Virus record (IMG/VR): IMGVR_UViG_3300045988_112440
Direction: 5' to 3' (one strand)
DNA: 64,000 nt
DNA from: a virus
The translations under genes were made by a program, and so were the position numbers. Of the stretch, positions 773 through 52,470 are shown in pieces. How positions within the stretch are numbered: the stretch's first letter is position 1; each line of letters starts with the position of its first letter. Under the pieces are notes generated by a model that saw only the letters and a list, made by a program, of their open reading frames with translations, did not search any database and was not told where the DNA came from.

Positions 773-794
773 GTATCCTGTATTGTATAGCTAT
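773..794 (+). promoter_or_regulatory. ACAGGATAC-core motif, forward-type copy (GTATCCTGTATTGTATAGCTAT)
   Basis: Inverted partner at 831-852, centres 58 bp apart. Read on the minus strand it points toward the minus-strand gene. Confidence 0.6.
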
Positions 795-830
795 CTACAC
801 TCATTATACCATGAGATTGCCAAAAGTTCA

Positions 831-852
831 ATAGCTACATAATACAGGATGC
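831..852 (+). promoter_or_regulatory. ACAGGATAC-core motif, reverse-type copy (ATAGCTACATAATACAGGATGC variant)
   Basis: Reverse complement matches 773-794 at about 19 of 22 positions. Confidence 0.55.
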
Positions 853-1608
853 GAGTATTTCTAGTGCCTATTATAATAAGGTATATTTTGGAGAGTATTG
901 TTCTCTATAAATGACATTTAGATACTTTGTGTGTTCTGTGTAAGCTGCCAGAGGCTACAATTATGCTTATTAAATGTGTCTGGAGTCTCTAAGGGTGCTG
1001 CTCAGATGCCAGATCAGTCTATTTATGGCGATAGGGGAGTATGGATGAGCATAAATAGGTACTTTATACTCCGAAGAATGGTCATTTTCGGTACATTTTG
1101 GGTACACATCGGGAAAACCTGCATGAATCCTAGCTTTTTCGGATTTTATTGAGCTAAAAAGGAACAAAATAAGTGGTAAAAAGATACAAATAAAAAGAAA
1201 AACTAGCCAAAATATAACGAAAATACGTTAAATTCTAGCTAGTTACCGAATGAGCTACCGATTGAAAAATAGCGATTTTAAGCCATTTTTATGTATTTTG
1301 AGTGGAAAAATGAGTGATTTGTGAGTATGTGCAGGAGAGGGTATAGGGGTGTATTTTAGGATGATTTTGTCAGGGAAATGTACCCGGGTAGGAACAGGTT
1401 AAATAGTTAGATTGAGTTGATAGGATAGATAGAGGTTGTTGTGATTGAAAGAGAATGGTATTTTTGTGGAAATTGTTGTGCAGAATGTATAGAGAGCAAG
1501 AGAAGATGAAATTCATAATTGGTAATTATGAACAAGAAAGATGTACTGGGATCTCAGCCTGCTGCCTGGAATGTCTCAAAAATGAAAAGTATCCCCCATG
1601 GGGAAAAG

Positions 1609-1640
1609 CCGCTTTTGTGCAAAAAGCGGTATTTGCTTTA
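1609..1640 (+). terminator. hairpin plus T-rich tail (terminator-like)
   Basis: CCGCTTTT-gtgca-AAAAGCGG followed by TATTTGCTTTA. A second hairpin AAAGTGCC/GGCACTTT sits at 1648-1669. Confidence 0.4.
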
Positions 1641-1765
1641 ATTGAATAAAGTGCCTGTTTTGGCACTTTCCAGGCCGGGAATTATTCCTACTTTTCCGGT
1701 ATGTTTATAGCATTGATTTTTGCCAGGAATTGAATTTGCAAATTAGTTGCATTTTCGTCGTGTTC

Positions 1766-1826
1766 GATATCAAAATGATATCAAATGTTGCGTGTGCAAC
1801 ATTTTGTAAAGTATTTTTACTTTACA
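1766..1826. repeat. three abutting perfect hairpins
   Basis: GATATCA-aaa-TGATATC (1766-1782), AAATGTTGC-gtgt-GCAACATTT (1783-1804), TGTAAAGTA-tttt-TACTTTACA (1805-1826). Confidence 0.8.
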
Positions 1827-1870
1827 TCAATTATGCTATTCTCTATATCTTGTATTCAATTCACAAAAAA

Positions 1871-1963
1871 CCACAATATCTAGTATCTATCTATATTGTT
1901 CAATATCGCACTATCCACAATATCTAGTATTCAACCATTCGTTCAAACCACAATATATAGTAT
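1871..1963 (+). repeat. three 16-bp direct repeats (iteron-like)
   Basis: CCACAATATCTAGTAT at 1871 and 1915, CCACAATATATAGTAT at 1948. Spacings are 44 and 33 bp, multiples of 11. Confidence 0.8.
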
Positions 1964-2200
1964 TGCCGGGTACTGTTGTACCTATTAGAGTTTTGCCTGC
2001 CTAGGCGCACGCACGCGCGTGAACACGTTTCCGCGTGTTTCTTAAAATTCTTTAACTATTCGATCACAGCCTTGCCAAAATATAATTTTTAACGATATAT
2101 CGCTATTTTATAAAATCCTGGAATTCTTGCGTGTTTTGTCCATGCGTTTGCAACAAAAGTATATGTTCAACCATGGTAGAACGTGGTAAAGTATAGCCAC

Positions 2201-2299
2201 CGGAAGGCCGGAAGGCTTGAAGGGACGCACGGTCGGAAGGTGCGGAAAAGTTCCCCGATAAATCGTTTAAAAGCAAGCGGTCGTTCCCCGAACGGAAGG
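2201..2299 (+). repeat. CGGAAGG x4 in a purine-rich tract
   Basis: Exact CGGAAGG at 2201, 2209, 2234 and 2293. CGGAA-type variants continue to about 2530. Confidence 0.7.
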
Positions 2300-4495: not shown

Positions 4496-4498
4496 ATC

Positions 4499-15972: not shown

Positions 15973-16251
15973 ATGAGTAAATTTAAAAATTTTCAGATTG
16001 GAGTAAAAGAAATTAGCAAAACATGGAATAGCGAAAATGTATTTTTTACGCAAATGCGTGACGGATATAGTGCTTCGTATAGACCAAAATATCCAGAATA
16101 TTGTAATGACGACATGATAATTCAGACATTAGAAGGGACAGGAGCAGTAAACCGTGGAGATTATGAATTGATAATTTTTGATGATGGAAAATTTACAAGC
16201 AAATATTTTAATGATACAGAAGAAATAAAAACGTATTTTGAAAACAGATAA
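15973..16251 (+). CDS. hypothetical protein
   Basis: ORF track. SD AAAGGAGA. Confidence 0.7.
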   Translation: MSKFKNFQIGVKEISKTWNSENVFFTQMRDGYSASYRPKYPEYCNDDMIIQTLEGTGAVNRGDYELIIFDDGKFTSKYFNDTEEIKTYFENR

Positions 16252-19568: not shown

Positions 19569-20888
19569 ATGATTACCAATAATCCTATGACCGTAATAAC
19601 CTCAAAGTCCTTTGGTGCACTGAATGTGGATGTGTACCAGAATGACAAGCACCAGTATTACATGACCCGTGAACAGATTGGTGCTGCGCTAGAGTACAAT
19701 AATCCTAATAAGGCAATTCAAAACATCCATGTTAAGAATACGGATCGTCTTGACCCTCTTTCAACATTCCTCAAACTGAGGAAAGTTGAAGGCGGAATCA
19801 CGAAAGAGCGTGAAATTATTTGTTACAGTTTGCGTGGCGTTATGGAGATCTGTCGTCTGTCCCGTCAGCCGAAGGCTGATGCGTTTATGGATTTCTGCTG
19901 GGACATTATGGAATCTTTGATGCGTGGCGATACCGTTTTAGCTACTCCTAAGATGGATGCTGCACTGAGCAAAGAATTCATTGACGTAAGACTTCATGCT
20001 CTGTTTGATAGTATGAAGAATCTTCAGAGTGAACTTGATTCCACTCGCAAAGATCTCAGTGAACAGATTGAGGAAGCTCGCGCCACCAGCAATGAAGCAC
20101 TGAATGTGATTAGCAGCGTATCTCAGTGTGTCCATCAGATTAAGGACAAGCAGATGGATGATGCGATTCGTTCTACCAGAAACTTTACTCCTCGTAAGGA
20201 TGTAACGAGTGACTGGCGTAAGAAGATGTATGAACGCATCAATGTGATTGCGGCAATCAATGAGATGAAGGTTCAGGATGTGTTCCGTGATGTTTACGAA
20301 TACATGAATCGTGTTTATACCTTTGTCATCGAGGAAGAGCGTAAAAAGTATTGTGTAAAAACTGGTCGTACTGGTCACATTCCTACGATTGATGTGGTTG
20401 AAGCAAGTACGATGTACAAGTCTATCTTTGGTGCTCTGGTTGAGGATCTGTATACCGAAGCGGTCAGCAAGAAGAAGGAAGAAGTTACTGAACGGAAAGC
20501 TTTGCCTGAAGCAAAAACTATTGAAGCAGCTCCTGAAGTGGCTGTCTGTGATGCTCCTGTGATTGAGGTGGAAGTTAATGAAGTTGAGTCTGAGCCGGTT
20601 GCGAAAGAAAAGCCCAAGAAGCAGAGCGAAACGGCGAAGATTCTTATTCCGATTCTGTTACCTTTGGCAGAAAAGCTTAATGATAAGCCGCAATACAAGC
20701 ACACTTACACTCTGATTTACGAGCGGATTGGCTATAAGAAAATGAATAATTTATTTATTGCTTATGAAAAAGCTCACGGTAAAGCACCAAATCCGAAGAC
20801 TAAGGTGTTTATTGAAAATGAAAAGAACCTGGCACTGTTTAAGAAAACTGTAAAGCAGTTGATGAAGGAGCAATTTGAAAAGAATTGA
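19569..20888 (+). CDS. Bro-N domain antirepressor-like protein
   Basis: ORF track. N-terminus FGALNVDVYQNDKHQYYMTREQIGAALEY..NKAIQNIH fits the Bro-N pattern. The C-terminal part is unrecognised. Confidence 0.7.
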   Translation: MITNNPMTVITSKSFGALNVDVYQNDKHQYYMTREQIGAALEYNNPNKAIQNIHVKNTDRLDPLSTFLKLRKVEGGITKEREIICYSLRGVMEICRLSRQPKADAFMDFCWDIMESLMRGDTVLATPKMDAALSKEFIDVRLHALFDSMKNLQSELDSTRKDLSEQIEEARATSNEALNVISSVSQCVHQIKDKQMDDAIRSTRNFTPRKDVTSDWRKKMYERINVIAAINEMKVQDVFRDVYEYMNRVYTFVIEEERKKYCVKTGRTGHIPTIDVVEASTMYKSIFGALVEDLYTEAVSKKKEEVTERKALPEAKTIEAAPEVAVCDAPVIEVEVNEVESEPVAKEKPKKQSETAKILIPILLPLAEKLNDKPQYKHTYTLIYERIGYKKMNNLFIAYEKAHGKAPNPKTKVFIENEKNLALFKKTVKQLMKEQFEKN

Positions 20889-21154: not shown

Positions 21155-21379
21155 ATGATGAAATATGGAAACATAACGTGTAAACGATGTGGGGCTACGT
21201 GGTATGGGCCAAAGTGTGGAAAGCTTTATTGTGATAATTGCAGAAGGATTGTGGATAGAGAAAAAGATATTAGATGTAAAAATAAAAAGAAACACAAACC
21301 GACATTTGTTGAAATTACAAGAATGGCAGATGCAGAGGGACTGTCCTATGGCAAGTATTGTTTAAAATATGGAATCTAA
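21155..21379 (+). CDS. zinc-ribbon protein
   Basis: Frame of ORF 21050-21379. ATG 21155 follows GAGGT. CKRCG...CGKLYCDNC motif. Confidence 0.6.
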   Translation: MMKYGNITCKRCGATWYGPKCGKLYCDNCRRIVDREKDIRCKNKKKHKPTFVEITRMADAEGLSYGKYCLKYGI

Positions 21380-21392
21380 AGGAGACGCAAAT

Positions 21393-22238
21393 ATGAACGC
21401 AGTATCTGAAAAGAACGAAAATAACGCAGTTGAGTTTAATCCGCCAAAGGTTGATCCTGCTCCCAAAGTGAAACATAACCAGGCGAAGAACTATAGTATC
21501 AAACGCAAGGAAGCTTGTAATGGAACGGTGCAGCCTATTAAAGATGTAGAGGATATTAAACGAATTTCGGAATATTTTTGGAATCGTGGGATGTACCGTG
21601 ATTGGTGTTTGTTTAATGTTGGTGTATGTACTGGTTTTCGTGCAAGCGATTTGCTTCGTTTTAAGGTTTCAGATGTTACAACGCAGAGGGTAAATGGAAA
21701 GTTGCAAGTAAATGCAAATGCAAAAATACGAATGAAGGAAAAGAAGACTGGAAAATACCGTATTGTTTTTCTTCCAGAATCTGCTTTGGAAGTGATTTCT
21801 ACTTATATCAATAAAGTTAAGCTCCATTATGACGATTGGCTTTTCCCGTCATGTAAAGGCAGCTCTCGCAATTCACTGAGGAGCACAGGTGGGACATCAA
21901 TTAGTAAAAAGACTGGAATTATGTATACACACGAGGCAAATCCAAAGGTATCCGGGGAGCCGCTTGATGTGGATAGTTTTGGACGAATTATGAAAAAGGT
22001 TCAAAAGGATATGGCTCTTCCATATAATCTTGGAACACATAGTTGCCGTAAGACATTCGGCTATCAGTTTATGGTACAGCACCGTGATGATGTTATGGCT
22101 CTGGCCTGGCTTCAGCACGCTTTGAATCATAGTAGTCAGGCAATCACTCTTCATTATATTGGTCTTGATTCAGAAGTGGATGAGAGATATTACTCTGGAA
22201 TCAATTATGGTGTGAATACTCATAGTGAAAACTCTTGA
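21393..22238 (+). CDS. tyrosine recombinase / integrase
   Basis: ORF 21369-22238, trimmed to ATG 21393 after AAAGGAGA. Catalytic-type motifs TGFRASDL, HSCRKTFG and LNHSS..ITLHYIG. Confidence 0.8.
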   Translation: MNAVSEKNENNAVEFNPPKVDPAPKVKHNQAKNYSIKRKEACNGTVQPIKDVEDIKRISEYFWNRGMYRDWCLFNVGVCTGFRASDLLRFKVSDVTTQRVNGKLQVNANAKIRMKEKKTGKYRIVFLPESALEVISTYINKVKLHYDDWLFPSCKGSSRNSLRSTGGTSISKKTGIMYTHEANPKVSGEPLDVDSFGRIMKKVQKDMALPYNLGTHSCRKTFGYQFMVQHRDDVMALAWLQHALNHSSQAITLHYIGLDSEVDERYYSGINYGVNTHSENS

Positions 22239-22246
22239 GGTGTGTT

Positions 22247-22927
22247 ATGGCTGATACTTATATTAAAATCTGGGATACTTATGAGAGCTACTTTGAACCA
22301 CTTAGTGCTGCTGAGGTGGGGCGTCTGGTATTGGCGATGATGAAATATAAATCGTCTGGAACGGAGCCTGAACTCAACGGAAATGAGCGGTATGTGTGGC
22401 CTGCTATTAAGAGAGATTTAATTAAAGATGCCGAATACATCGAAGGTAAGCGCATTTCTGGAAAAGCTGGAGGTGAAAGCAAGCGTAAGCAAAACAAAGC
22501 AAATGCAAGCAAAACAAAGCTAGAAAAAGAAAAAGAGAAAGAAAAAGATAAGATATCGTCTTCGTCTAGTGATAAGACGACAACGACGAAATCTATCGAG
22601 GATGTCTTTCGAGATGATATTGGGAAGCTTGGTGCTACTGGTCAAAAGGCTTTAGCAAAATATGTTGAGCGCATGGGTGACGAACTTGTGCTTGCTGTGA
22701 TTGGTAAGTGTTCTGATCTCGGCGGTAGCACATGGGCTTATGTGCGAAAAGCTCTGGACGAAGCAGAATCTCTTGGTTGTAAAACTGCTGATGATTATCG
22801 CCGGGCTTGTCCGATAGGGAATGGTCGTAATCTTAGAGTGAGTAGGGATACTCAATGCGGAACCGATTGGCTAAAAAACGCAACCTTGGATAAAAATCTT
22901 CGCAGAATGAAAATGATAAAAGAGTGA
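22247..22927 (+). CDS. DnaD / replisome-organiser-like protein
   Basis: ORF 22235-22927, trimmed to ATG 22247. N-terminus YFEPLSAAEVGRLVLAMMKY. K/E linker. C-terminus GGSTWAYVRKALDEAESLG resembles a DnaD C-domain. Confidence 0.55.
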   Translation: MADTYIKIWDTYESYFEPLSAAEVGRLVLAMMKYKSSGTEPELNGNERYVWPAIKRDLIKDAEYIEGKRISGKAGGESKRKQNKANASKTKLEKEKEKEKDKISSSSSDKTTTTKSIEDVFRDDIGKLGATGQKALAKYVERMGDELVLAVIGKCSDLGGSTWAYVRKALDEAESLGCKTADDYRRACPIGNGRNLRVSRDTQCGTDWLKNATLDKNLRRMKMIKE

Positions 22928-27626: not shown

Positions 27627-28379
27627 ATGACAAGAAATGAATTGCTTGGAGCATTATGCTTTCCAGAATATAATTTTCTTCGGGAGAATGAGCATCTTGG
27701 CAAGCATATGATGTTCGTAACGGTCGGTGGCAGTCATGCTTATGGAACAAATGTTGAGGGTTCAGATCTCGACATCCGAGGGGTGGCATTAAATTCAAGA
27801 GAAGACCTTCTTGGTCTTGGTGAGTTTGAACATTATGTGGATACTCAAACTGATACTACAATCTACAGCTTTAATAAGGCTGTGAAGCTAATGTGCAGTG
27901 GAAATCCTAATATGCTGGAGCAGCTAGGGAACGCCGATGAACTCGTTATTAGCTATAATCCAATGACAAAGTTACTTATGGATAATAAAAAGCTGTTCCT
28001 GTCGAGGCGTGTAATCTATTCGTTTGGCGGTTTTGCAGGTAAGCTGATTCAGAAGGCTGATACGCTGGACAAAGATCCAATTTATCATGGCTCAAAGAAA
28101 ATGCACAAGACGGTAATGAATGTAGTTCGTGTATACCTGATGCTCTTTGACATCTTAGAAAAAGGTGAAATTAAAACCTATCGAGACAACGATCATAACT
28201 TCCTGACGCAGCTTCGCAACGGTGAATATGATTACAAAGAGATTCGTCAGCAACTGATTCCGGCCTATGAAAGCAGATTGTCAGTGGACAAGAGTGAGAC
28301 TTACCTGCCGGACAATGTTGATTGGAAGCGGGTCAACGAGCTTGTGATGACTGTAAATGAGGAGTCTTTAAAGATTTGA
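27627..28379 (+). CDS. predicted nucleotidyltransferase
   Basis: ORF track. GGSHAYGTNVEGSDLDIRGV is a GS..YG...SD.D nucleotidyltransferase motif. Confidence 0.65.
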   Translation: MTRNELLGALCFPEYNFLRENEHLGKHMMFVTVGGSHAYGTNVEGSDLDIRGVALNSREDLLGLGEFEHYVDTQTDTTIYSFNKAVKLMCSGNPNMLEQLGNADELVISYNPMTKLLMDNKKLFLSRRVIYSFGGFAGKLIQKADTLDKDPIYHGSKKMHKTVMNVVRVYLMLFDILEKGEIKTYRDNDHNFLTQLRNGEYDYKEIRQQLIPAYESRLSVDKSETYLPDNVDWKRVNELVMTVNEESLKI

Positions 28380-29281: not shown

Positions 29282-29309
29282 TTGACTAAAACAAAAGGCT
29301 GTGTATAAT
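29282..29309 (+). promoter_or_regulatory. sigma-70-like promoter
   Basis: TTGACT (29282-29287), 16 bp spacer, TATAAT (29304-29309). Flanked by the tandem word AACAAAA(A/G)G(A/C)TGTGTA. Confidence 0.55.
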
Positions 29310-29314: not shown

Positions 29315-29680
29315 TTGAAAGTTGTTTGTGTGAGCGGAAGGCGGTTATTCTTGATGAGCGATAGAAAGGTTTTGAAAGTTATACGGGTTGATGATTTTTT
29401 AAAGTACATAAGAAAAAAGCGAGTGTGGGTCTGCTTTGTTTGTAATGGTGTGGATATTCACATGATCTGCAAAAAGATTGACGACATTGGCGTAGAGACG
29501 GGTGGGATTGTTAATGGCGTGGGGTTCTTCGGAAATGAGAGTCACATCGAGTTGCGACAAAAATGCCATGAAGTAAGGAGAATTGAACTTAGGTCTGGCT
29601 GTGCAGAGAAAGCGTATGAGATGATCTTCGATAATACTAGTGTGTTCGTATCAGAGAATCCTGAGTTGTACGGGCACTAA
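29315..29680 (+). CDS. hypothetical protein
   Basis: ORF track. No clear SD (TTG 29315 or ATG 29354), so the start is uncertain. Confidence 0.45.
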   Translation: MKVVCVSGRRLFLMSDRKVLKVIRVDDFLKYIRKKRVWVCFVCNGVDIHMICKKIDDIGVETGGIVNGVGFFGNESHIELRQKCHEVRRIELRSGCAEKAYEMIFDNTSVFVSENPELYGH

Positions 29681-29699: not shown

Positions 29700-29736
29700 T
29701 TGACTTCTGTGATTGTATCCTGTATAATGTAGCTAT
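29700..29736 (+). promoter_or_regulatory. consensus sigma-70 promoter carrying a forward-type motif copy
   Basis: TTGACT (29700-29705), 17 bp spacer, TATAAT (29723-29728). Motif GTATCCTGTATAATGTAGCTAT at 29715-29736. Confidence 0.7.
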
Positions 29737-29771
29737 GGAACGGAGCTACATCATTGTAGAGGAGAATGACT

Positions 29772-30191
29772 ATGGATAACAATATTGACCCAAAGGTCGG
29801 AGAGGTTTGGTTGGTTGATCTATCCAATGCGACAGGTCATCAGCAGCGCGGCATTCGACCGTTCGTTGTGACAAGTAACAACAAGCGTAACTTCTTCAGC
29901 CCAACAATCAAAGGGAATCCGTTATCTTCAAGAATATATAAGCGTTCTCCGGTTCATGTTCTACTCTCAAAGGAAGACTGCGAGTTCCTAGAGGTTGATA
30001 GTATCGTTCTCTGCGAAGAGACTGATACACTTAACAAAGGACAGTTCATCAAGAAACTTGGTGTCTTGTCGGAGCGTCAGATGAATATGATTGCAATGGC
30101 AAGATGCAAAGATGAACCATTTTTGCTCGCAGCATTTCTGAGCGGTGTACAACATACTATGGAATTTCAGAATTTTGCCGCATTTGCTTGA
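29772..30191 (+). CDS. MazF/PemK-family endoribonuclease toxin-like protein
   Basis: ORF 29766-30191, trimmed to ATG 29772 (6 nt after GGAGA). GEVWLVDLSNATGHQQRGIRPFVVTSNN...DSIVLCEETDTLNK aligns with the MazF fold pattern. Extra ~30-aa C-terminal tail. Confidence 0.7.
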   Translation: MDNNIDPKVGEVWLVDLSNATGHQQRGIRPFVVTSNNKRNFFSPTIKGNPLSSRIYKRSPVHVLLSKEDCEFLEVDSIVLCEETDTLNKGQFIKKLGVLSERQMNMIAMARCKDEPFLLAAFLSGVQHTMEFQNFAAFA

Positions 30192-30242: not shown

Positions 30243-31169
30243 ATGCTTACTGAAGAAAAAATCAAATCTTTTGCCGAAAAGTATTCTGATAGAAGCGGTG
30301 AGTTTGTTATATCGACGCTTAACCATGTTATGGATTACGAGGCCGAGCGTGGATATGAGTTGTTTGACTTCACAAAAGATGATTTTGTAAGGATGTTTGC
30401 TAAATACAATTGGGTGAACTCAAGTCGGTCGTTCAGAAATGTAAAGTCGATAATTACAGGGTACATCAAAAGTGATGATCGAGCGAGTATGTATGACTTA
30501 GCTGAATTCTCGGAGAGCGATGTGAGTTCAGACAATATGTACGAGGACAAGTATTTTGCATCAGTTGATGAGTTTGTTGATTTCTTGGACAAGTATGAAG
30601 AACCATATCAGATTCGTATGAACGTGATTGCCGTACTGTACTGGATTGGACTTACTTCTGAAGAGGTTTCTAATCTGACAATCAACAATGTTGATTTTGA
30701 ATCATGTACTGTTCTGAATAGGACCGGTGTTGACGCAAGACTGATGAATATCATTAAGCAGTGTTATGAAATGAAACAATACGATGCTCCAAATATGGGA
30801 GGATACAGAACGTTTTATGTCATAAATGGTGATTACATCCTTCGCAAAACAGAGGATAGAACTGGTGCAGACAGTGATTCAAGAATGTCTACAAACACAA
30901 TTCATAGTTATTTCACGCGCTTGAATGATATTCTCGAAAGAAGATATCATTCAAAGGCTTTAGACCGAAGACATCTGACTAGAAACGGCGAGTATGTCAA
31001 GGTTTATAACTACTGTAAAACTCATCCAGAATTTAATCTTGCAGAACTTAGTTTCGGAAATGGTAAAGATCCTCTTGCGGACATTATCGGAAGAAAGTGC
31101 AGCAAGGTTGCCTACATTAGTTTCCGGCAAGGATACAAGGGCTGGATCGAATACTTCCACAAAAATTAA
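30243..31169 (+). CDS. hypothetical protein, weak tyrosine-recombinase-like layout (degenerate)
   Basis: ORF track. SD GAAGGAG. WIGLTSEEVSNL sits where recombinases have TG.R.SE (Arg replaced by Thr). The functional call is weak. Confidence 0.35.
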   Translation: MLTEEKIKSFAEKYSDRSGEFVISTLNHVMDYEAERGYELFDFTKDDFVRMFAKYNWVNSSRSFRNVKSIITGYIKSDDRASMYDLAEFSESDVSSDNMYEDKYFASVDEFVDFLDKYEEPYQIRMNVIAVLYWIGLTSEEVSNLTINNVDFESCTVLNRTGVDARLMNIIKQCYEMKQYDAPNMGGYRTFYVINGDYILRKTEDRTGADSDSRMSTNTIHSYFTRLNDILERRYHSKALDRRHLTRNGEYVKVYNYCKTHPEFNLAELSFGNGKDPLADIIGRKCSKVAYISFRQGYKGWIEYFHKN

Positions 31170-31174
31170 AAACA

Positions 31175-31197
31175 GGGGGCTTCGGCCCCTTGATTTT
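31175..31197 (+). terminator. intrinsic terminator
   Basis: GGGGC-TTCG-GCCCC followed by TTGATTTT, 6 nt after the stop codon. Confidence 0.75.
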
Positions 31198-31205
31198 AAC
31201 ATTGT

Positions 31206-31225
31206 AACTATATAACACAGGATAC
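31206..31225 (+). promoter_or_regulatory. ACAGGATAC-core motif, reverse-type copy
   Basis: AACTATATAACACAGGATAC. Ends 21 nt before ATG 31247. Confidence 0.6.
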
Positions 31226-31246: not shown

Positions 31247-33460
31247 ATGAGAACGCTTTTGCTGTTCCGTGGAGCACCAGGTTGTGGGAAGTCCACCTAT
31301 ATTAAAGAGCATAATCTTGAACAGTACGTATTGAGTGCTGATACACTTCGCCTTATGTGCCAGAGCGCACAGGAAACACCTGCCGGGCAGATGGAGATTT
31401 CTCCGCAGAATGATGATGTTGTATGGGAGATGCTTTTCAAACTGCTTGAGGTGCGTATGAGTCATGGCGAGTTTACCGTGATTGATGCAACGAATTCCAA
31501 GACGGTCGAAATGAATCGTTATAAGAATCTGGCAAAACAGTATCGTTATCGGATGTATGTTATTGACATGACTGACCTTCCGATTGAGGAATGCAAACGA
31601 AGAAACGCTCAGAGAGAATGGCTGAAGCGAGTTCCTGAAGCGGCCATTGATAAGATGTACGCTCGGTTTGCTACTCAAAAAGTTCCTTCTGGCGTGACAG
31701 TTCTTCCTTCTACTACAGATGTGATGTCCGATTTGAATTACTGTCCGAATGACTTCAACCAGTGGAAGAAGATCCATGTCATCGGTGATGTTCATGGCTG
31801 TTATACTTGTTTAAGTGAATACCTTGGCGAGATGAAGGACGACGAACTTTATATTTTCGTTGGTGATTATCTCAATCGTGGCATCGAAAACGTTGAGGTA
31901 TTCAAGTTCTTGTGTGATGTTGTAAATAACAACCGCAAGAATGTGATCCTTTTGGAAGGGAATCACGAGCGTTGGCTGAACAAGTGGGGGCATGATGAAC
32001 CGGTTCAGAGTGAAGAGTTTGCAAACTACACTCGTCCGCAGCTTTTTAAAGCTGGTATTGATAAGAACACTGCTCGTAAGATCTATTCCAGAGTCGGCCA
32101 GTGTGCCTACTTTGAGTATGATGGTAAGCGGTATTTCGTGAGCCACGGTGGTTTGAGTTATCTGCCTTATTTTCTTCCTTTCGTATCTGCTGACCAGATG
32201 ATCAAAGGTGTAGGTCGCTATCCTGATATGCTAACCGTGGCTGAGTCTTGGGAAAAATCGATGCCTGATAGCTATATTCAGATATTCGGTCATCGAAATG
32301 TGCAGGATGTTCCTATTGATATGGGGCATCGGTGCTACAACCTCGAAGGAAAAATCGAGTTTGGTGGATATCTCCGTTGCGTGGAACTTGAACACGGTCA
32401 GCCCGTCAAGTGTGTAGAAACCAAGAATGATGTATTCCGAAAAGAGGAACCAAAGACCGAATCTGCCGTTGAAATGAAAACTGAGTTCGATAACGCAGAA
32501 CTTGTTAGTAAGATGCGTCAAAGCAAATATGTGTTTGAGAAGCGATTCGGAGATATTTCTTCTTTCAACTTCTCTCGTGAAGCATTTTATAAGAAGCATT
32601 GGGATGAGGTTTCTACCAAAGCAAGGGGATTGTTCATTAACACAAAGACGAATAAGATTGTAGCTCGAAGCTATGATAAGTTCTTTGCGGTTGATGAGCG
32701 GAATGAAACGAGAATTGGAAACCTACAGAACACTTTGAAGTTCCCGGTGACTGCGTATCTAAAAGAGAACGGATTTCTTGGTATCATTTCGTATGATGCA
32801 GAACAGGATGGCCTGTTCATTGCAAGTAAATCCACTCCTGAAGGGCCTTTTGCAGATATGTTCCGAAAGATTCTCATGGATACGACTTCTGATGAAGATC
32901 GTAAGAATCTGAAAGAAGTTGCAAAAGAGAATGGCTCCATCATCTTCGAGGTGATTGATCCTGTGAATGATGCTCATATCATTGAATACAAGAAACCACA
33001 CATTGTTTTGCTGGATATTATTGCGAATGATATGAACTTCAGTGTGATGGATTACGATGATCTGAAGCGTGTTGCTGAAAAGTGTCATTTGCAGATTAAG
33101 GAGAAGGTTAAGACTTTTGAGAACTGGAGTAAATTTTATCCTTGGTACGAGGAAGTCATGAACGAGAACTATCTGCATCATGGCTTTGAACACGTTGAAG
33201 GCTTTGTTTTGCGAGACAGCAACAATTTTATGTTTAAGATGAAGCTTCCTTATTATAAGCACTGGAAGTTCTTGCGTGGTGTCATGCAGAGTGTCCAGAA
33301 GCGTGGTTATTACGAAAACACTGCCAAGCTATTTACTGCTGAGGATAACCTGTTCTATGGTTGGATGCGTGAGCAACGAGAGAAAGACCAGGAGTCTTTT
33401 TGCAAGAAGGGTATTATTCAGCTGCGGAATGAGTTCTACGCAAGTCAGCAGAAGAGCTGA
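31247..33460 (+). CDS. trifunctional polynucleotide kinase / metallophosphatase / ligase (Pnkp-like RNA repair enzyme)
   Basis: ORF track. P-loop GAPGCGKST. Phosphoesterase motifs GDVHGC, GDYLNRG and GNHE. Ligase-type motifs KENG, EGFVLRD and FKMKL. Confidence 0.8.
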   Translation: MRTLLLFRGAPGCGKSTYIKEHNLEQYVLSADTLRLMCQSAQETPAGQMEISPQNDDVVWEMLFKLLEVRMSHGEFTVIDATNSKTVEMNRYKNLAKQYRYRMYVIDMTDLPIEECKRRNAQREWLKRVPEAAIDKMYARFATQKVPSGVTVLPSTTDVMSDLNYCPNDFNQWKKIHVIGDVHGCYTCLSEYLGEMKDDELYIFVGDYLNRGIENVEVFKFLCDVVNNNRKNVILLEGNHERWLNKWGHDEPVQSEEFANYTRPQLFKAGIDKNTARKIYSRVGQCAYFEYDGKRYFVSHGGLSYLPYFLPFVSADQMIKGVGRYPDMLTVAESWEKSMPDSYIQIFGHRNVQDVPIDMGHRCYNLEGKIEFGGYLRCVELEHGQPVKCVETKNDVFRKEEPKTESAVEMKTEFDNAELVSKMRQSKYVFEKRFGDISSFNFSREAFYKKHWDEVSTKARGLFINTKTNKIVARSYDKFFAVDERNETRIGNLQNTLKFPVTAYLKENGFLGIISYDAEQDGLFIASKSTPEGPFADMFRKILMDTTSDEDRKNLKEVAKENGSIIFEVIDPVNDAHIIEYKKPHIVLLDIIANDMNFSVMDYDDLKRVAEKCHLQIKEKVKTFENWSKFYPWYEEVMNENYLHHGFEHVEGFVLRDSNNFMFKMKLPYYKHWKFLRGVMQSVQKRGYYENTAKLFTAEDNLFYGWMREQREKDQESFCKKGIIQLRNEFYASQQKS

Positions 33461-33575: not shown

Positions 33576-33660
33576 GGGGATATGGTGAAATTGGCAGCCA
33601 CGCTTGATTCAAACTCAAGTGTCGAAAGACGTATCGGTTCAAATCCGATTATCCCTACCA
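33576..33660 (+). tRNA. tRNA-Leu(CAA): tRNA-Leu (anticodon CAA), type II, CCA encoded
   Basis: Hand-folded. Acceptor GGGGATA/TATCCCT. Anticodon stem CTTGA/TCAAG with loop TTCAAAC. Long variable arm. T arm ATCGG-TTCAAAT-CCGAT. Confidence 0.85.
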
Positions 33661-33857
33661 TGAAGATCAGTTGTTCTGGCTAGATCGGGGATTGGCCGTT
33701 CATTGGCAAACGACAGGTATCATACCGGTAAAGGATGCCGAGCCAAATAGGAAGGGGAATAAGGTGCAAGCCGAGTAGCTGTCGGACGAATACCCTTCAG
33801 GTAGCCAGTAAACCGGAATGTAAAACAAATGTTGGCTGTTTCTGATCTTCTATATAA
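33661..33857 (+). ncRNA. 197-nt structured spacer (unclassified candidate ncRNA)
   Basis: Nested helices: 33662-33670/33842-33850 (9 bp), 33676-33682/33802-33808 (7 bp), and two internal arms. Confidence 0.35.
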
Positions 33858-33940
33858 GCTACCGTGGTGGAATGGCAGACACCGGAGACTTAAAATCTCC
33901 TGTCGGAAACGACGTGCCCGTTCAAGTCGGGTCGGTAGCA
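33858..33940 (+). tRNA. tRNA-Leu(UAA): tRNA-Leu (anticodon UAA), type II
   Basis: Acceptor GCTACCG/CGGTAGC. Anticodon stem GGAGA/TCTCC with loop CTTAAAA. Long variable arm. No CCA encoded. Confidence 0.85.
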
Positions 33941-33947
33941 TTGATAT

Positions 33948-34023
33948 CCGGGTGTAGCTCAGTTGGAAGAGCGCGTGCTTTGGGAGCATGAGGCCGCAGG
34001 ATCGTGACCTGTCACTCGGACCA
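33948..34023 (+). tRNA. tRNA-Pro(UGG): tRNA-Pro (anticodon UGG)
   Basis: Acceptor CCGGGTG/CACTCGG (C1-G72). D arm GCTC..GAGC. Anticodon loop TTTGGGA. CCA encoded. Confidence 0.85.
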
Positions 34024-34056
34024 ACCCGAAAGGGCATGTAGAATTTTTCATTCACA

Positions 34057-34110
34057 TTATTCCCAGCTCTCTGGAAACGGAGCAGTGTGACGTAGTAAGC
34101 TGGGCATATG
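34057..34110 (+). ncRNA. covarying spacer element, copy a
   Basis: ATTATT CCCAGCT [CTCTG-GAAA-CGGAG] CAGTGTGACGTAGTA AGCTGGG. Confidence 0.5.
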
Positions 34111-34112
34111 CT

Positions 34113-34183
34113 GCGCCATCGCCAAGCGGTAAGGCAGAGGACTTTGACTCCTCCATCACAGGTTCGACCCCTGTTGGCGCAAT
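34113..34183 (+). tRNA. tRNA-Gln(UUG): tRNA-Gln (anticodon UUG)
   Basis: Acceptor TGCGCCA/TGGCGCA (U1-A72). Anticodon stem GAGGA/TCCTC with loop CTTTGAC. T arm ACAGG-TTCGACC-CCTGT. Confidence 0.8.
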
Positions 34184-34187
34184 TTAT

Positions 34188-34269
34188 GCGGATATGGTGG
34201 AATGGCAGACACGCCAGACTTAGGATCTGGTGCTTCGGCGTGTGGGTTCGATGCCCACTATCCGCACCA
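34188..34269 (+). tRNA. tRNA-Leu(UAG): tRNA-Leu (anticodon UAG), type II, CCA encoded
   Basis: Acceptor GCGGATA/TATCCGC. Anticodon stem CCAGA/TCTGG with loop CTTAGGA. Variable arm TGCTTCGGCGT. Confidence 0.85.
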
Positions 34270-34319
34270 CGATCATAGAATGGTTGCGTACCGTTTGTTG
34301 ATCTCCTTTGACTGCCACT

Positions 34320-34375
34320 ATTATTCCCAGCTCACCAGTGATGGTGCAGTAGTGCTTTGTAAGCTGGGTGATTAT
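34320..34375 (+). ncRNA. covarying spacer element, copy b
   Basis: ATTATT CCCAGCT [CACCA-GTGA-TGGTG] CAGTAGTGCTTTGTA AGCTGGG. Confidence 0.5.
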
Positions 34376-34450
34376 GCAGCGGTCGTACAATGGTTAGTAT
34401 ATCAGCCTTCCAAGCTGAGGATGAGGTTTCGACTACCTTTCGCTGCTCCA
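34376..34450 (+). tRNA. tRNA-Gly(UCC): tRNA-Gly (anticodon UCC)
   Basis: Acceptor GCAGCGG/TCGCTGC. Anticodon stem TCAGC/GCTGA with loop CTTCCAA. Discriminator U. CCA encoded. Confidence 0.85.
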
Positions 34451-34545
34451 ATCTCGTATGGGTAGGATTTTTAGCGGTCAAATCCGGCTGCGCCTGTGCG
34501 AGATACCACCCCGAAAGGGGAGAGATATAGGAAATGTGCATCACT

Positions 34546-34600
34546 GTTATTCCTTCCTCGTCTATATGATATAGATGCAATAGTGTTTATAAGGAAGGTT
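34546..34600 (+). ncRNA. covarying spacer element, copy c
   Basis: GTTATT CCTTCCT cg[TCTATA-TGA-TATAGA] TGCAATAGTGTTTATA AGGAAGG. A further hairpin TCCCAGT/ACTGGGA follows at 34600-34633. Confidence 0.45.
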
Positions 34601-34637
34601 CCCAGTTGAATAGTTGCAGCTGTTTGACTGGGAATAT

Positions 34638-34714
34638 GGGATAGTAGCTCAGTTGGTCAGAGCTGGCGGCTCATAACCGCTTGGTCGCGAGTTCAAATCT
34701 TGCCTGTCCCACCA
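34638..34714 (+). tRNA. tRNA-Met(CAU): tRNA with CAU anticodon (elongator Met or Ile2), CCA encoded
   Basis: Acceptor GGGATAG/CTGTCCC (G1-C72, so not initiator-like). Anticodon loop CTCATAA. T arm GCGAG-TTCAAAT-CTTGC. Confidence 0.8.
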
Positions 34715-34808
34715 GCCCAATAGGGTATACATAAAATTTTTGTTTTATAAGCGATGAAATAATATGACGTTGATACGTCTATTATTTTTTCGCTCATTTT
34801 CGGAGATT

Positions 34809-34829
34809 TAGCTATGTAACACAGGATAC
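34809..34829 (+). promoter_or_regulatory. ACAGGATAC-core motif, reverse-type copy
   Basis: TAGCTATGTAACACAGGATAC. Ends 17 nt before GTG 34847. Confidence 0.6.
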
Positions 34830-38389: not shown

Positions 38390-38404
38390 AAATTTTTTGC
38401 TTTT

Positions 38405-38424
38405 AACTAAGTGACACAGGATAC
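38405..38424 (+). promoter_or_regulatory. ACAGGATAC-core motif, reverse-type copy
   Basis: AACTAAGTGACACAGGATAC. Ends 36 nt before ATG 38461. Confidence 0.55.
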
Positions 38425-49967: not shown

Positions 49968-49979
49968 GAGGGTTGTAAA

Positions 49980-52310
49980 GTGGCAGATAAGAAATTTAAT
50001 GAAAATATGATTCGTTGCTACATCAGGATAAAACGAGTCTTTTATCCGAAAGATGGGAGGGAAGTGGAGCCCGGCGGCTTCGCCACTTTCTCTGCCGAGG
50101 TGGTAAAAGTCAAGCAGGGACATCCTATCATGAGCCGATACAGCGACCTCCGGCTAAAAGGCAACGTTCCTAGCCTCGATATGAATAAAACTTATTCGTT
50201 CTGTGGTGAATATGTTCATCATGAAAAGTTTGGTGATCAGTATAAAATTATCTACATGAATGAGTTTCAAGAGATTACTGACCCGGAAGAACAAAAAAGC
50301 TTTCTCCGTTTTATCTTGACCGACCATCAGTTTGAGATGCTTTATGAAGCATTCAAGAATCCGTATGAAATCATCAAGAACGGTGATGTCAAGTCTCTTT
50401 GTACTGTTAGCGGCATTACGGAAGGTCGAGCACAAAAGATTATTGACTCCTTTGAAAACAACATTGATAACAGTGAAGCGTACACAAAACTGATTGAGTA
50501 CGGTTTGACTCCCAGTGCTATTGAAAAGCTTGTTCGTCAGTATCACGGTGCAGACATTCTGGTAAAAAAGATTGAAGAGAATCCTTACGTCTTGATTGAT
50601 GATGTGTATGGCATCGGCTGGAAAAAAGCTGACGCTCTTGCTTTAAATATGGGCTTAAAGCACAATTCGCAATTCAGAATCGAAGCCTACGTCATGCATT
50701 TTCTTGCCGCTCGTGCCGAAGAAGGTAACTCTATTATCTCGGCAAACCAGACAATCAATAGCTGTATTAAGGAACTTGATTTGAACGAGGGTGATCAAGA
50801 AGTTATCAAAATGGCACTTTTCCATCTGCATGATGTCCGTGAAACGCTTTGGTGGAGTGATGACCGTCAGGAATTTGCTTTAACTAGAGTGTGAAATCTG
50901 GAAGATAGTATTGCGAATGAAATCAAGCGTCTGGCGGATGCTCCTGTTGATCCGATTGGTCAAAATATGGATGCAGCAATCAATGAGGCCGAAAATGCGC
51001 TTGGCATCGAGTATACCGAAGAACAGAGAGATGCCATTAAAAAGGTATGCTCTAGCAACGTCTGTATTTTAACAGGCTACGGCGGAACTGGCAAAAGTAC
51101 CGTTGTCGCTGGTGTCTTAAAAGTTCTTCGTGGTAAGTCTTTTGCACAGACTGCACTCTCTGGCCGTGCTGCCGCTCGTATGCAGGAGATTACTGGTCAG
51201 GATGGAAAGACGATTCATCGTCTCCTTGGATATGACATCGAGAACGGTGGGTTTGTTCACGATAAGGACAATCCTCTGGATGAGGACATCATCATTCTGG
51301 ATGAGACCTCCATGGTTGGTGCTCAATTGTTTTACGATTTGATTCAGGCAATCGAAACCGGCAAGCGATTCATCATGATTGGTGATGACGGTCAGCTTGA
51401 GAGTATCGGTATGTGTAACATCTTCAAGGATATGCTTGCATCTAAGGTTGTTCCTGTGGCTCGTTTGACTAAGATCCATCGTCAGGCAGCCAAGTCTGCA
51501 ATTATCACGGAGAGCATTAAGGTTCGTAACGCTACGCAATTGGTGCCTTATGGCTGGGCTGGCAATGAGATTCGTGGTGAACTTCGTGATTTGGAGCTTG
51601 ATATCTATAAAGACGCAAGTGAGTCATTCAACCACATTATCAATCAGTACCGTACCTTATATAATAAGGTAGGGAATGATAGTGCGAAGATTCAGATTGT
51701 GCTTCCACAGAAGCTGCGTGGTAGTATCTGTACCTATGAAGTCAATAATGCTATTCAGGAAATTGTGAATCCGAGTCGTGGTCAAGCAGAAGCAAAGGTC
51801 ACAATCTATGGTGATGGCAAGGATAGAGCGTACACTCTGCGTGAGGGTGATCAGGTCATTATCAACAAGAACAACTATGAGCTTCACACATACAATCTCA
51901 AGACAAAGAAAAAAGAAGAGAAGTGTCCGGTGTTCAACGGAAACCGTGGCATTATCCGAAAGATTGAGAATAGTTTTATCCTGGTTGATTTTGACCAGTG
52001 GGGAACGATCTTCATTCCACATTACTTTGGTGGGAATAACGTCTGGGCAACACTTGAACTTGCTTATGCTTTAAGTTGTCATAAGTTGCAGGGCAGTGAG
52101 GCTCCGTATGTGATTGTTGGCATGGACAACTCTGCGTACCTGATGCTGACGAGAGAATGGCTCTATACGGCCATCACTCGTGCCAAGAAGTATTGTGTGA
52201 TTTGCGCCGAAACTCATGCTCTTGATCGGGCTGTAAAGACTTCGAGAGTTCCATATAAGCGGACGTTCTTGAAGGAATTTTTACGGAAAGAATTTTCAGA
52301 AAAGCATTGA
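49980..52310 (+). CDS. RecD2-like SF1 helicase with one in-frame TGA (50892-50894)
   Basis: Track ORFs 49980-50894 and 50967-52310 share a frame. 24 sense codons bridge them and ATG 50967 has no SD. Walker A GYGGTGKST, Walker B IIILDETSM. Confidence 0.7.
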
Positions 52311-52343
52311 CAATCATATTGGTGTCCTGTATAATGTAGCTAT
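52307..52343 (+). promoter_or_regulatory. consensus sigma-70 promoter carrying a forward-type motif copy
   Basis: TTGACA (52307-52312, overlaps the helicase stop), 17 bp spacer, TATAAT (52330-52335). Motif GTGTCCTGTATAATGTAGCTAT at 52322-52343. Confidence 0.7.
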
Positions 52344-52381
52344 AAGAAGTCTCTATCCCAGAGGCTTAAAATTCTCTCTTT

Positions 52382-52401
52382 AACTATATAATACAGGATA
52401 C
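52382..52401 (+). promoter_or_regulatory. ACAGGATAC-core motif, reverse-type copy
   Basis: AACTATATAATACAGGATAC. Centre is 58 bp from the 52322-52343 copy. Confidence 0.6.
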
Positions 52402-52404
52402 GGG

Positions 52405-52441
52405 AAAGAAATGGCTTGCTCGTAACGACAAGCCTTTCTTT
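52405..52441 (+). terminator. strong ~17-bp hairpin (attenuator/terminator or processing site)
   Basis: AAAGAAA.GGCTTG.TCG-taa-CGA.CAAGCC.TTTCTTT with two bulges. The 3' arm is T-rich but no free U-tract follows. Confidence 0.45.
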
Positions 52442-52450
52442 ATTGGCTAT

Positions 52451-52470
52451 AACTATATAATACAGGATAC
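52451..52470 (+). promoter_or_regulatory. ACAGGATAC-core motif, reverse-type copy
   Basis: Same 20-mer as 52382-52401, 69 bp downstream. Ends 13 nt before ATG 52484. Confidence 0.6.

Follow-up and report, generated by a model that had tools for sequence, protein, structure and literature searches.

The window and its intergenic word

The window (the whole 64,000-nucleotide stretch that was analysed) derives from an uncultured SPbeta-like phage of ~135 kb from a gut Firmicute, with a presumably temperate lifestyle. The order of its YorF-like, Sak4/YorG-like ATPase, DnaB, primase, RecJ and DnaE genes is that of SPbeta yorF-yorL (the genes named in this synteny being yorF-yorG-yorI-yorJ-yorK-yorL), and the genomes of its relatives, ~135 kb long with two divergent arms, display an SPbeta-like backbone. 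In these relatives, a YonO-type RNA polymerase is encoded just to the left of the region covered by the window (927-aa homologue; BLASTP 7e-23; Pfam RdRP 6e-14). No relatives were found in GTDB genomes, and searches for a LexA box and for a Sar-type antirepressor identified none.

The intergenic regions share a 21-bp word, TA(G/A)CTA-N6-ACAGGATAC, of which a PWM scan of both strands of the window retrieved exactly 11 copies, all within 1-2 nt of where the preliminary description of this DNA had located them. The strand of a copy is the strand on which the word reads TAGCTA...ACAGGATAC. The copies and their neighbouring elements are the following:

773..793, minus strand: word copy pointing left, TAGCTATACAATACAGGATAC, at ~+3..+23 of a leftward sigma-A promoter
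803..831, minus strand: leftward sigma-A-type promoter, TTGAAC-17-TGgTATAAT
832..852, plus strand: word copy (GGATGC variant) pointing right, directly next to the -35 (831-826) of this promoter
7640..7660, minus strand: antisense word copy over the spacer, -10 and +1 of a rightward promoter, TTGACA-17-TATTCT (7625-7653)
7700..7720, plus strand: sense word copy paired with that at 7640; a start codon follows after 21 nt, at 7742
29715..29735, minus strand: antisense word copy inside TTGACT-17-TATAAT (29700-29728), the promoter of the mazF-like/mrpR-like operon
29766..30191, plus strand: MazF/PemK-like toxin gene (PF02452, 1.7e-19), first gene of a two-gene cassette bracketed by copies
30243..31169, plus strand: gene of an MrpR/YopR/SroF-family protein of 308 aa with a predicted catalytically dead tyrosine-recombinase fold; proposed binder of the word
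31166..31199, plus strand: strong intrinsic-terminator-like hairpin (-18.2 kcal/mol, z -4.9) ending the candidate repressor operon
31205..31225, plus strand: sense word copy, 21 nt before a Pnkp/RNA-ligase gene (31247)
34750-34794: terminator-like hairpin (-20.5 kcal/mol) upstream of the 34809 copy
34809..34829, plus strand: sense word copy after a tRNA block and hairpin, just before a C5-methyltransferase operon
38404..38424, plus strand: sense word copy separating the YorF-like from the YorG-like gene; the replication operon follows after 36 nt
52322..52342, minus strand: antisense word copy (GGACAC variant) inside a consensus promoter, TTGACA-17-TATAAT (52307-52335)
52381..52401, plus strand: sense word copy, 59 bp from the 52322 copy
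52405-52441: terminator-like hairpin (-16.6 kcal/mol) following the 52381 copy
52450..52470, plus strand: sense word copy, 13 nt before an ATP-dependent DNA ligase gene (52484)

The word is real and far from chance. The 11 copies score 27-34 bits, whereas the next best site reaches 9.0 bits (128 kb, both strands), and this cleanly bimodal distribution indicates that further copies are absent from the window. In the shuffled-sequence control proposed by the preliminary description, Markov shuffles (n=100) scored with the same PWM did not exceed 18.2 bits. Similarly, ACAGGATAC with at most one mismatch occurs 30 times in the window versus 10.0 +/- 3.2 times in shuffles (maximum 17). The copies had been described as lying only between genes, and all 11 are indeed intergenic on a crude ORF map that covers ~89% of the window. 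Two invariant blocks, TAGCTA and ACAGGATAC, enclose an AT-rich 6-bp centre that is freely variable (variants include TATAAC, AGTGAC, TGAAAC and TACATT) and whose -7 position T is C in most sense copies. No internal dyad was found in a single 21-bp copy. After masking the 11 copies, no second word was present in more than four of the 41 intergenic gaps, and the 21-bp word is therefore the sole candidate operator.

Promoters, paired copies and conservation in relatives

Copies overlap or abut sigma-A-type promoters at four junctions, 803-831(-), 7625-7653, 29700-29728 (the candidate repressor operon) and 52307-52335, the last three being the sigma-70-like promoters that the preliminary description had seen over antisense copies. 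Four of the 11 copies are antisense to genes, all of them in or against such promoters. The promoter at 803..831(-), which relatives also conserve, is placed exactly between the two members of the first pair, the 773..793(-) copy being located 260 nt upstream of a leftward gene of 495 aa (ATG at 512-510). The sense copies are found at operon heads, often just behind terminators, and the layout of terminator, 21-bp word and Shine-Dalgarno sequence with gene recurs at 31205 (where the hairpin 31166..31199 is directly upstream of the copy), 34809 and 52450. They display no -35 hexamer, as previously noted, and no sigma-A-like promoter was found within 250-300 bp of the single sense copies at 31205, 34809 and 38404; these three promoterless operons include the whole replication module, and the copies at 31205 and 34809 follow strong terminators. 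The central hexamer was considered as a sigma-A -10 element and rejected because of its variability and of the predominance of C at -7. A copy directly preceding a gene always points toward that gene.

The inverted pairs, for which a constant spacing had been reported, are separated by 59, 60 and 59 bp (start to start) in the window and by 58-61 bp in relatives (64 occurrences, 58 distinct pair sequences), tail to tail without exception. Between the 7640 and 7700 copies there are 39 bp with a weak hairpin. Five of the 11 copies are solitary, no partner being located within 80 bp.

The conservation at orthologous junctions on which the preliminary description had made its proposal depend was observed in dozens of related contigs. 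More than 60 related phage contigs of ~135 kb carry the word at the corresponding junctions, also when flanks or downstream gene have changed, and gene order and orientation are constant across these relatives, with downstream genes differing at some junctions. About a third of the relatives' copies are antisense, the strand having been assigned by local GC skew, with some copies mis-sorted; next to these antisense copies, a gene-strand TTGAC(A/T) -35 and an A-rich upstream tract are kept at a fixed distance. The 1.49-kb geometry of one copy in the candidate repressor's promoter and one after its terminator is retained in many relatives, and 37 of 39 carry a sense copy ~30 nt ahead of their yonO homologue. 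Both in the window and in the relatives, copies occur only in the early arms: the word is absent from the ~8 kb beyond the yonO homologue in the relatives and from the right-terminal ~20 kb, and the loci of 33 relatives around and beyond the right window end contain no copies except the known ligase trio.

A candidate repressor and the possible readings of the word

By profile comparison, the product of ORF 30243-31169 shows remote yet specific homology to MrpR/YopR/SroF. This master repressor of SPbeta and phi3T has a catalytically dead tyrosine-recombinase fold; as a monomer, it binds long, asymmetric sites (SPBRE, Phi3TRE) that are scattered over early promoters. A profile-profile alignment (hhalign) with YopR and eight phage homologues gave a probability of 96.7% (E 3.6e-10, 237 columns), the Pfam MrpR_N_CB domain scored 21 bits on the protein and 27.7 bits on its homologue P0066, and MrpR_C_cat is precomputed on ~65 of 77 listed homologues (72-98% identity); matches to PF22822/PF22823 were found for the protein family. 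The top six Foldseek PDB matches were SroF-DNA, SroF-Sar, MrpR and YopR structures, with weak E-values (7e-3 to 6e-2) from an AF2 model of moderate quality (pLDDT 68). The catalytic Arg-I is replaced by Thr, PF00589 does not match this protein, and the ordinary recombinase at 21369-22238, used as a negative control, fails to match the MrpR profile. The operon of this candidate (mazF-like and mrpR-like) has one copy inside its promoter and another beyond its terminator.

The word is thus probably the dispersed operator of an MrpR/SroF-family master repressor encoded at 30243-31169, a counterpart of SPBRE and Phi3TRE. This explanation comes from the SPbeta-like context, which was beyond the reach of the preliminary description. 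Of the three readings that description had offered, the operator is the one favoured here. Linked to the word by homology and position, the protein would bind it and thereby repress transcription. The 308-aa protein could clamp as a monomer round a single 21-bp copy, reading the TAGCTA and ACAGGATAC blocks and tolerating the AT-rich 6-bp centre; since nothing in the binding of a monomer to an asymmetric site dictates the orientation, copies would be usable in both directions. Three rightward sigma-A promoters, whose spacer, -10 and +1 are covered by antisense copies, would be silenced, the 29715 copy being presumably an autoregulatory operator in the repressor's own promoter, and the two copies of the first pair flank a leftward sigma-A promoter, one against its -35 and the other at +3. 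At the sense copies, which head the Pnkp/tRNA, methylase, replication, ligase and, in relatives, YonO-RNA-polymerase operons, mostly just behind terminators, the clamp could block initiation or stop read-through polymerase. In this way, the repressor may keep early, replication and RNA-polymerase genes off. At the promoterless sense copies (31205, 34809 and 38404), a pure operator would have to be a roadblock, which does not in itself account for the transcription of these operons during lytic growth.

The three operons lacking a recognisable sigma-A promoter, the replication module among them, are also what favours reading the sense copies as -35-independent promoters for middle genes, used by a YonO-type RNA polymerase or a phage-modified host polymerase, with the inverted copies in sigma-A promoters letting the same enzyme occlude early promoters. 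The recurrent terminator-word-Shine-Dalgarno layout, the orientation of all copies directly before genes and the YonO homologue encoded by relatives agree with such promoters. Contiguous conservation over ~21 bp and a GG near a possible +1 are likewise features of single-subunit polymerase promoters. Should a YonO-type enzyme use the sense copies as promoters, these would provide the first promoter consensus for the YonO polymerase family. Nevertheless, we consider this reading unlikely: it leaves unexplained the copies that point against genes (four of 11, and about a third in relatives), three conserved junction classes lie inside canonical sigma-A promoters of the other strand, and the central hexamer varies too much to serve as a -10 element, TATAAT not being conserved as one. 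Moreover, no sigma factor or other polymerase was detected among the window proteins scanned, and the MrpR-family repressor would be left without an operator, as no other word is repeated. In SPbeta, YonO has a single late promoter and early genes depend on the host polymerase (PMC5467207). The -35-independent promoter suggested in the preliminary description could apply, with low probability, to the sense copies, three of which head operons lacking a sigma-A promoter, but it fails to explain the antisense copies.

The word could instead be an orientation-coded switch. Through copies in one orientation, a host-type early promoter would be silenced by the integrase-fold repressor or by a phage polymerase; in the other, at promoterless heads behind terminators, the word would be a polar roadblock, an insulator or a -35-independent promoter of a YonO-type or modified host polymerase. 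One word would then shut off the early programme and in addition open, or gate, the middle one, a scheme that we regard as rather improbable. A dual use, in which the word is the repressor's operator but sense copies double as the core of a promoter that is weak or needs an activator, each operon firing directly once derepressed, would reconcile the operator evidence with the promoterless operon heads, and SPBRE is itself embedded in TAGACA-17-TATAAT promoters of SPbeta. However, the sense copies lack a -35, their -7 T is usually C, some conserved copies carry TGAAAC or AGTGAC as hexamer, and one 21-bp sequence serving two readers is unparsimonious; this dual use seems quite unlikely.

It is very improbable that the inverted pairs act as dsRNA stems of ~20 bp cut by RNase III in read-through transcripts, as also suggested in the preliminary description. 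The 80-nt pair regions do fold as long stems (-24 and -28 kcal/mol; z -4.5 and -6.4), but this is a trivial outcome of one word in two opposite orientations, the five unpaired copies do not fit, and transcripts initiated at the embedded sigma-A promoter would begin downstream of the left arm. Across the 58 distinct pairs, 139 arm differences are uncompensated (90 mismatches and 49 wobbles) versus 16 shared changes. Finally, recombination sites for inversion or module shuffling by the intact tyrosine recombinase at 21369-22238, which aligns with XerA at RI, HxxR, H and Y, would fit the downstream genes that vary between relatives at some junctions, but are scarcely credible given arms 37-40 bp apart instead of 6-8 bp, the lack of a dyad in the copy, the constant gene order and orientation in more than 60 relatives, and the scrambling of a co-directional genome that inversion between dispersed copies would cause.

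Comparison with known systems

Like the word, T7-type single-subunit promoters are contiguous conserved words of ~20 bp before gene blocks, often after terminators. However, they are strictly co-oriented with genes, whereas a third of the copies here are inverted inside host-type promoters, and no T7-like polymerase was found. The C1 repressor of P1 is a monomer with asymmetric 17-bp operators, more than 10 of them over a ~90-kb genome, in both orientations and some paired. Its protein fold and operator sequence are unrelated to those described here, and P1 is a plasmid prophage of enterobacteria.

Among the MrpR/SroF relatives, SroF of phi3T binds as a monomer to a 26-bp asymmetric box, of which 24 bp are read, at many genome sites (bioRxiv 10.1101/2025.11.27.690993). 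In its structures (9rd5, 9rgl), a monomeric clamp holds a 24-26-bp non-palindromic Phi3TRE box with an AT-rich centre, one of many dispersed boxes, which makes a 21-bp asymmetric word with two invariant blocks around a variable AT-rich centre plausible as a single site. Unlike the word, the phi3T boxes (middle 50 kb only) are co-oriented with genes and often upstream of the -35.

In SPbeta, MrpR binds SPBRE at 10 early promoters (PMC10516654). The SPbeta backbone is syntenic with the window, and the repressors are homologous dead tyrosine-recombinase folds. Both SPBRE and the word are long and asymmetric, in ~10-12 copies, exclusively intergenic and at early operon heads, among them those of the repressor operon itself, of the replication genes and of the yonO polymerase gene (for the word, in relatives). 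The 38404 copy matches the position of the SPBRE at yorE, and the relatives' copy before the yonO homologue parallels the SPBRE at yonP/yonO. Both also overlap sigma-A spacers and -10 elements or abut Shine-Dalgarno sequences, the latter being the case for some SPBRE copies downstream of the promoter, as at yopV, yopM and the second yonX copy. In contrast, SPBRE (tAGACAaatacaAAWAATATGTATA) shows no sequence similarity to TAGCTA-N6-ACAGGATAC, and Phi3TRE is also dissimilar, as expected, since each known repressor has its own box. The repressor operon contains mazF-like and mrpR-like genes here versus yopMNOPQR in SPbeta, and the host is an uncultured gut Firmicute instead of Bacillus. All SPBRE copies are co-oriented with the downstream gene, whereas a third of the copies here are inverted in promoters of the other strand and tail-to-tail pairs occur at three junctions, unlike SPBRE. 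Read as an operator, the word is of a known type, while its use in two orientations and its fixed tail-to-tail pairs of 58-61 bp are without precedent among the SPBRE copies and the phi3T boxes of the middle 50 kb.

The repeated word and its distribution among relatives

Alignment of the 11 sites defines a 21-bp word, TA(G/A)CTA-(T/C)(A/G)T(A/T)A(T/C)-ACAGGATAC, in which a variable AT-rich centre separates two nearly invariant blocks. With at most one mismatch, the ACAGGATAC core occurs 30 times in the window, compared with 10.0 ± 3.2 times in dinucleotide shuffles. A position weight matrix (PWM) built from the word and run on both strands scores the 11 copies at 27-34 bits and the runner-up position at 9.0 bits, while the maximum over 100 shuffles is 18.2 bits. 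Because of this gap, the list of 11 copies is complete and set cleanly apart from the background. Every copy lies between ORFs, which cover ~89% of the window in a crude ORF map. The preliminary description, which had reported 11 copies confined to intergenic positions and had proposed shuffled sequence as a control, is thus borne out on both points. Seven copies are in sense orientation, reading toward the rightward genes, and four are antisense. An Rfam search found tRNAs alone, and none of the copies coincides with an RNA family.

A scan of IMG/VR for the exact pattern retrieved at least 117 matching stretches, and nearly all of the listed matches belong to contigs of 70-141 kb from a single phage family sampled from the human gut. 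PWM scores are again bimodal in 861 kb of relatives' loci. Conservation at orthologous junctions, also suggested earlier as a check, is observed: clustering of the flanks shows that the junction classes bearing the word in the window also bear it in relatives, and that it is retained despite diverged flanks or a replaced downstream gene. Paired copies invariably lie tail to tail, their TAGCTA ends facing each other and their starts 58-61 bp apart, in 64 pair occurrences representing 58 distinct pair sequences; none of the 64 is convergent. The constant spacing first noticed in the window therefore extends to the relatives.

Antisense copies lie in or against sigma-A promoters

At three antisense copies, a gene-strand TTGAC(A/T) lies at a fixed distance, 9-10 nt past the ACAGGATAC end, and the inverted word supplies the spacer, -10 and +1 of a gene-strand promoter. 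All three promoters previously described as sigma-70-like were recovered, and a fourth, conserved promoter lies within the first pair of copies:

7625-7653, plus strand: promoter TTGACA-17-TATTCT over an antisense copy
29700-29728, plus strand: promoter TTGACT-17-TATAAT over the antisense copy at 29715
52307-52335, plus strand: promoter TTGACA-17-TATAAT over an antisense copy
831-803, minus strand: promoter TTGAAC-17-TGgTATAAT between copies 773-793 and 832-852

The -35 and an A-rich tract upstream of it are conserved in relatives at the antisense copies. Copy 773-793, the fourth in antisense orientation, faces a leftward gene starting at 512 and begins ~3 nt past the expected start site of the leftward promoter, whose -35 is touched by the 832-852 copy. 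The leftward gene, which encodes 495 aa, is separated from the leftward copy by a 260-nt region (514-772, minus strand) with two long hairpins, at 532-554/572-594 (23 bp, 87% complementary) and 620-646/651-677 (27 bp, 85% complementary). This region, for which Rfam gave no match, could act as a structured leader or yield a small RNA, controlled by the sandwiched promoter. On the other side of the first pair, ~2.1 kb (853-2975) has little convincing coding potential and differs in content among relatives. It contains three to four direct repeats of CCACAATATCTAGTAT at 31-44-bp spacing (1862-1964) and further inverted repeats, which could be iterons or regulator sites. A strong sigma-A-like promoter that does not carry the word (TTGACT-16-TATAAT, 29282-29309, 11/12) directly precedes the ORF at 29315-29680; some host-type phage promoters have no copy of the putative operator.

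Near the sense copies, neither a -35 nor any other sigma-A promoter was found, in agreement with the earlier remark that the reverse-type copies lack a convincing -35. For the single copies at 31205, 34809 and 38404, no sigma-A-like promoter scoring at least 9/12 lies within 250-300 bp upstream. The central hexamer of the sense copies reads TATAAT, TATAAC, TGTAAC or AGTGAC in the window and also TGAAAC, TACATT or TATGAC in relatives, and most of them have C instead of T at the position equivalent to -7. The hexamer is therefore not under a -10 constraint. Three sense copies lie directly 3' of strong terminator-like hairpins:

31166-31199: terminator-like hairpin, -18.2 kcal/mol
34750-34794: terminator-like hairpin, -20.5 kcal/mol
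52405-52441: terminator-like hairpin, -16.6 kcal/mol

The candidate repressor and the phage that carries it

The antisense copy at 29715 and the sense copy at 31205 enclose 1.49 kb, a spacing kept in many relatives, and this segment contains two genes. The first encodes a MazF/PemK-like toxin (1.7e-19). The 308-aa product of the second (ORF 30243-31169) has a sub-threshold match to Pfam MrpR_N_CB (21 bits; 27.7 bits for its homologue P0066), and ~65 of 77 listed homologues, at 72-98% identity, carry a precomputed MrpR_C_cat match. Comparisons with YopR or the PDB by plain BLASTP or phmmer gave no significant match, the BLASTP alignment with SPbeta YopR being collinear. The family assignment is resolved only by profile-profile comparison and fold search. 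A profile of 22 family members matched one of YopR and eight phage homologues (E3, Perkons, phi3T, Sundance, BcoS-136, PBC2, FADO and c-st) with a probability of 96.7% and an E-value of 3.6e-10 over 237 columns across both domains. The AlphaFold model (pLDDT 68) retrieved as its six best PDB matches phi3T SroF-DNA, SroF-Sar, MrpR and YopR, with XerA and Cre ranking next. Threonine takes the place of the recombinase box-I arginine (GLTSEE, vs GLRISE of Tn1549 Int), and no Phage_integrase match was obtained for this protein even at an E-value of 1.

A tyrosine recombinase of 289 aa (21369-22238) was considered as the binder and rejected, as its catalytic positions align with XerA and it shows no YopR similarity. 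Used as a control, it did not match the MrpR profile (probability 0.4%), which indicates that the MrpR-family assignment is specific. Together with a DUF6291/DnaD-like protein encoded after it, it occupies 21369-22927, in the middle of the long block of small early genes; it is conserved in relatives and may serve integration or resolution. The candidate-repressor cluster is present on hundreds of contigs, and the most divergent homologue found (72% identity) carries the same word. With the 11 copies masked, any other word recurs in at most 4 of the 41 intergenic gaps; therefore, the window offers no other operator candidate for the MrpR-like repressor. The LexA box gave a single chance-level match, inside nrdD.

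Genes identified with Pfam and PHROG comprise a Pnkp/RNA-ligase fusion, seven tRNA genes, a C5-methylase, a Sak4-type ATPase, DnaB, primase, RecJ, DnaE, a split RecD2, an ATP-dependent ligase and NrdD. The order YorF-like, YorG-like, DnaB, primase, RecJ, DnaE is that of SPbeta yorF-yorL. The closest DnaE, from Clostridium phage Amboise, is only 47% identical; a near-identity DNA search retrieved no relative among cultured phages, and two scans of GTDB genomes, one by protein and one by the paired-motif pattern, gave no match. The split RecD2-type helicase consists of an N-terminal OB/HHH part and a helicase core (49980-50894 and 50967-52310). An RNA-repair theme is represented by an RlaP-like nucleotidyltransferase (27627-28379) and the 737-aa kinase-phosphatase-RNA ligase (Pnkp/Rnl) fusion (31247-33460); these and the tRNA genes (33576-34714; Leu x3, Pro, Gln, Gly and Met) adjoin the MazF-like endoribonuclease gene (29766-30191). 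The RNA-ligase/methylase junction varies between genomes, and in one relative (L127, 12936-14225) it holds a gene for a 429-aa TnpB/Cas12f-like protein.

A walk leftward of the window in 39 relatives showed the 495-aa protein followed by a KilAC/ANT protein, small ORFs and a further sense copy, ~30 nt upstream of a gene whose 927-aa product is homologous to YonO, the RNA polymerase of SPbeta (BLASTP 7e-23; Pfam RdRP 6e-14); the ~8 kb beyond it are free of copies. In locus L136 this two-barrel polymerase gene (13365-16148), with its upstream copy, precedes genes for ClpP-like, PhoH-like, CapR-domain and metallophosphoesterase proteins. Around and past the right end, no copy was found in 33 relatives, except the known trio before the ligase gene in one locus. 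These walks therefore indicate ~12 copies per genome, all in two early arms diverging from the first pair. The contigs of most relatives end ~7-10 kb past the window's last gene (L175-L207), which suggests a fixed physical genome end or a prophage boundary; in a 136.8-kb contig the divergent first pair is ~63 kb from the other end. Among ~50 proteins of the window and relatives scanned with Pfam and PHROG there is no sigma factor, and the YonO homologue of relatives is the sole polymerase. The early arms also encode GmrSD_N-like, Bro-N and KilAC/ANT-domain proteins (window 26311-27087 and 19569-20888; L037 1436-2128), of which the ANT and Bro proteins are possible antirepressors of the MrpR-like protein.

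A putative operator and its known counterparts

We consider it likely that the word is the operator of this MrpR-like protein. Overlap with promoters, protein homology and the distribution of the copies are observed here; binding, repression and lysogeny we infer. The protein would occupy each copy as a monomer. On antisense copies it would cover the spacer, -10 and +1 of sigma-A promoters, its own included, giving occlusion and autoregulation, and at the first pair two clamps would flank the leftward promoter. Sense copies would place it ahead of the first ribosome-binding site, with a terminator or promoter on its other side, at the Pnkp/tRNA, methylase, replication, ligase and YonO operons, where it would block initiation or read-through.

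It is improbable that the word is instead a phage-specific promoter, and an orientation-coded switch or promoter role is equally doubtful. A promoter would account for the order terminator, word, gene and for the promoterless operons, but the inverted copies within host-type promoters and the variable centre would stay unaccounted for; the MrpR-like repressor would be left without an operator, and SPbeta YonO has a single late promoter (PMC5467207). A dual role as operator and promoter seems somewhat less probable still. The pair regions do fold, as RNase III stems would, but trivially, because they contain two inverted copies of one word; with 139 uncompensated arm differences vs 16 shared changes, and five copies having no partner within 80 bp, this option of the preliminary description is very improbable. 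Recombination sites are just as implausible, since the geometry is unsuited and gene order is constant across relatives.

If correct, this reading provides a sharply defined putative operator and a likely repressor for a widespread ~135-kb phage family from human-gut samples, as well as a map of putatively regulated operons that includes the YonO-type RNA polymerase and the RNA-repair/tRNA module. The 308-aa protein and a 21-bp oligonucleotide form a ready test pair for DNA reading by this repressor class. The unusual geometry (inverted copies in promoters, 58-61-bp tail-to-tail pairs, and copies behind terminators at promoterless operons) may shed light on the block that a clamp-type repressor imposes on initiation and elongation.

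To our knowledge, the only integrase-fold monomeric repressors with long dispersed operators that have yet been examined by experiment are those of Bacillus phages SPbeta and phi3T; sequence homologues of the repressor occur in other large Firmicute phages. MrpR (YopR/SroF) is the SPbeta master repressor, located by ChAP-seq on 10 early promoters with the SPBRE box; its targets include aimR, yorE, yorM, yosX, yonP and yopM, the last of which opens its own operon (PMC10516654). In NC_001884, we located SPBRE copies with the consensus tAGACAaatacaAAWAATATGTATAtaat. All 12 gene-adjacent copies point toward the downstream gene, one of them directly before yonO; most lie in promoter spacers and some downstream of the promoter, abutting the Shine-Dalgarno sequence. 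The phi3T repressor encircles DNA as a monomer on a 26-bp box, of which it reads 24 bp, with its CB domain over the central 6 bp; such boxes are scattered through the genome, with a different box for each repressor (bioRxiv 10.1101/2025.11.27.690993). An asymmetric 21-bp word whose two invariant blocks enclose a free AT-rich centre would be expected as the target of such a clamp.

The putative operator shows every feature of the SPBRE/Phi3TRE family that can be tested in silico, and the MazF-like toxin beside the candidate repressor echoes the MazEF link of arbitrium phages. Nevertheless, the word differs from these boxes in sequence, in its use in both orientations and in its fixed tail-to-tail pairs, and here the mazF-like/mrpR-like operon is minimal. 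It is a putative operator of an uncultured gut phage lineage, kin to the SPBRE/Phi3TRE type already known.
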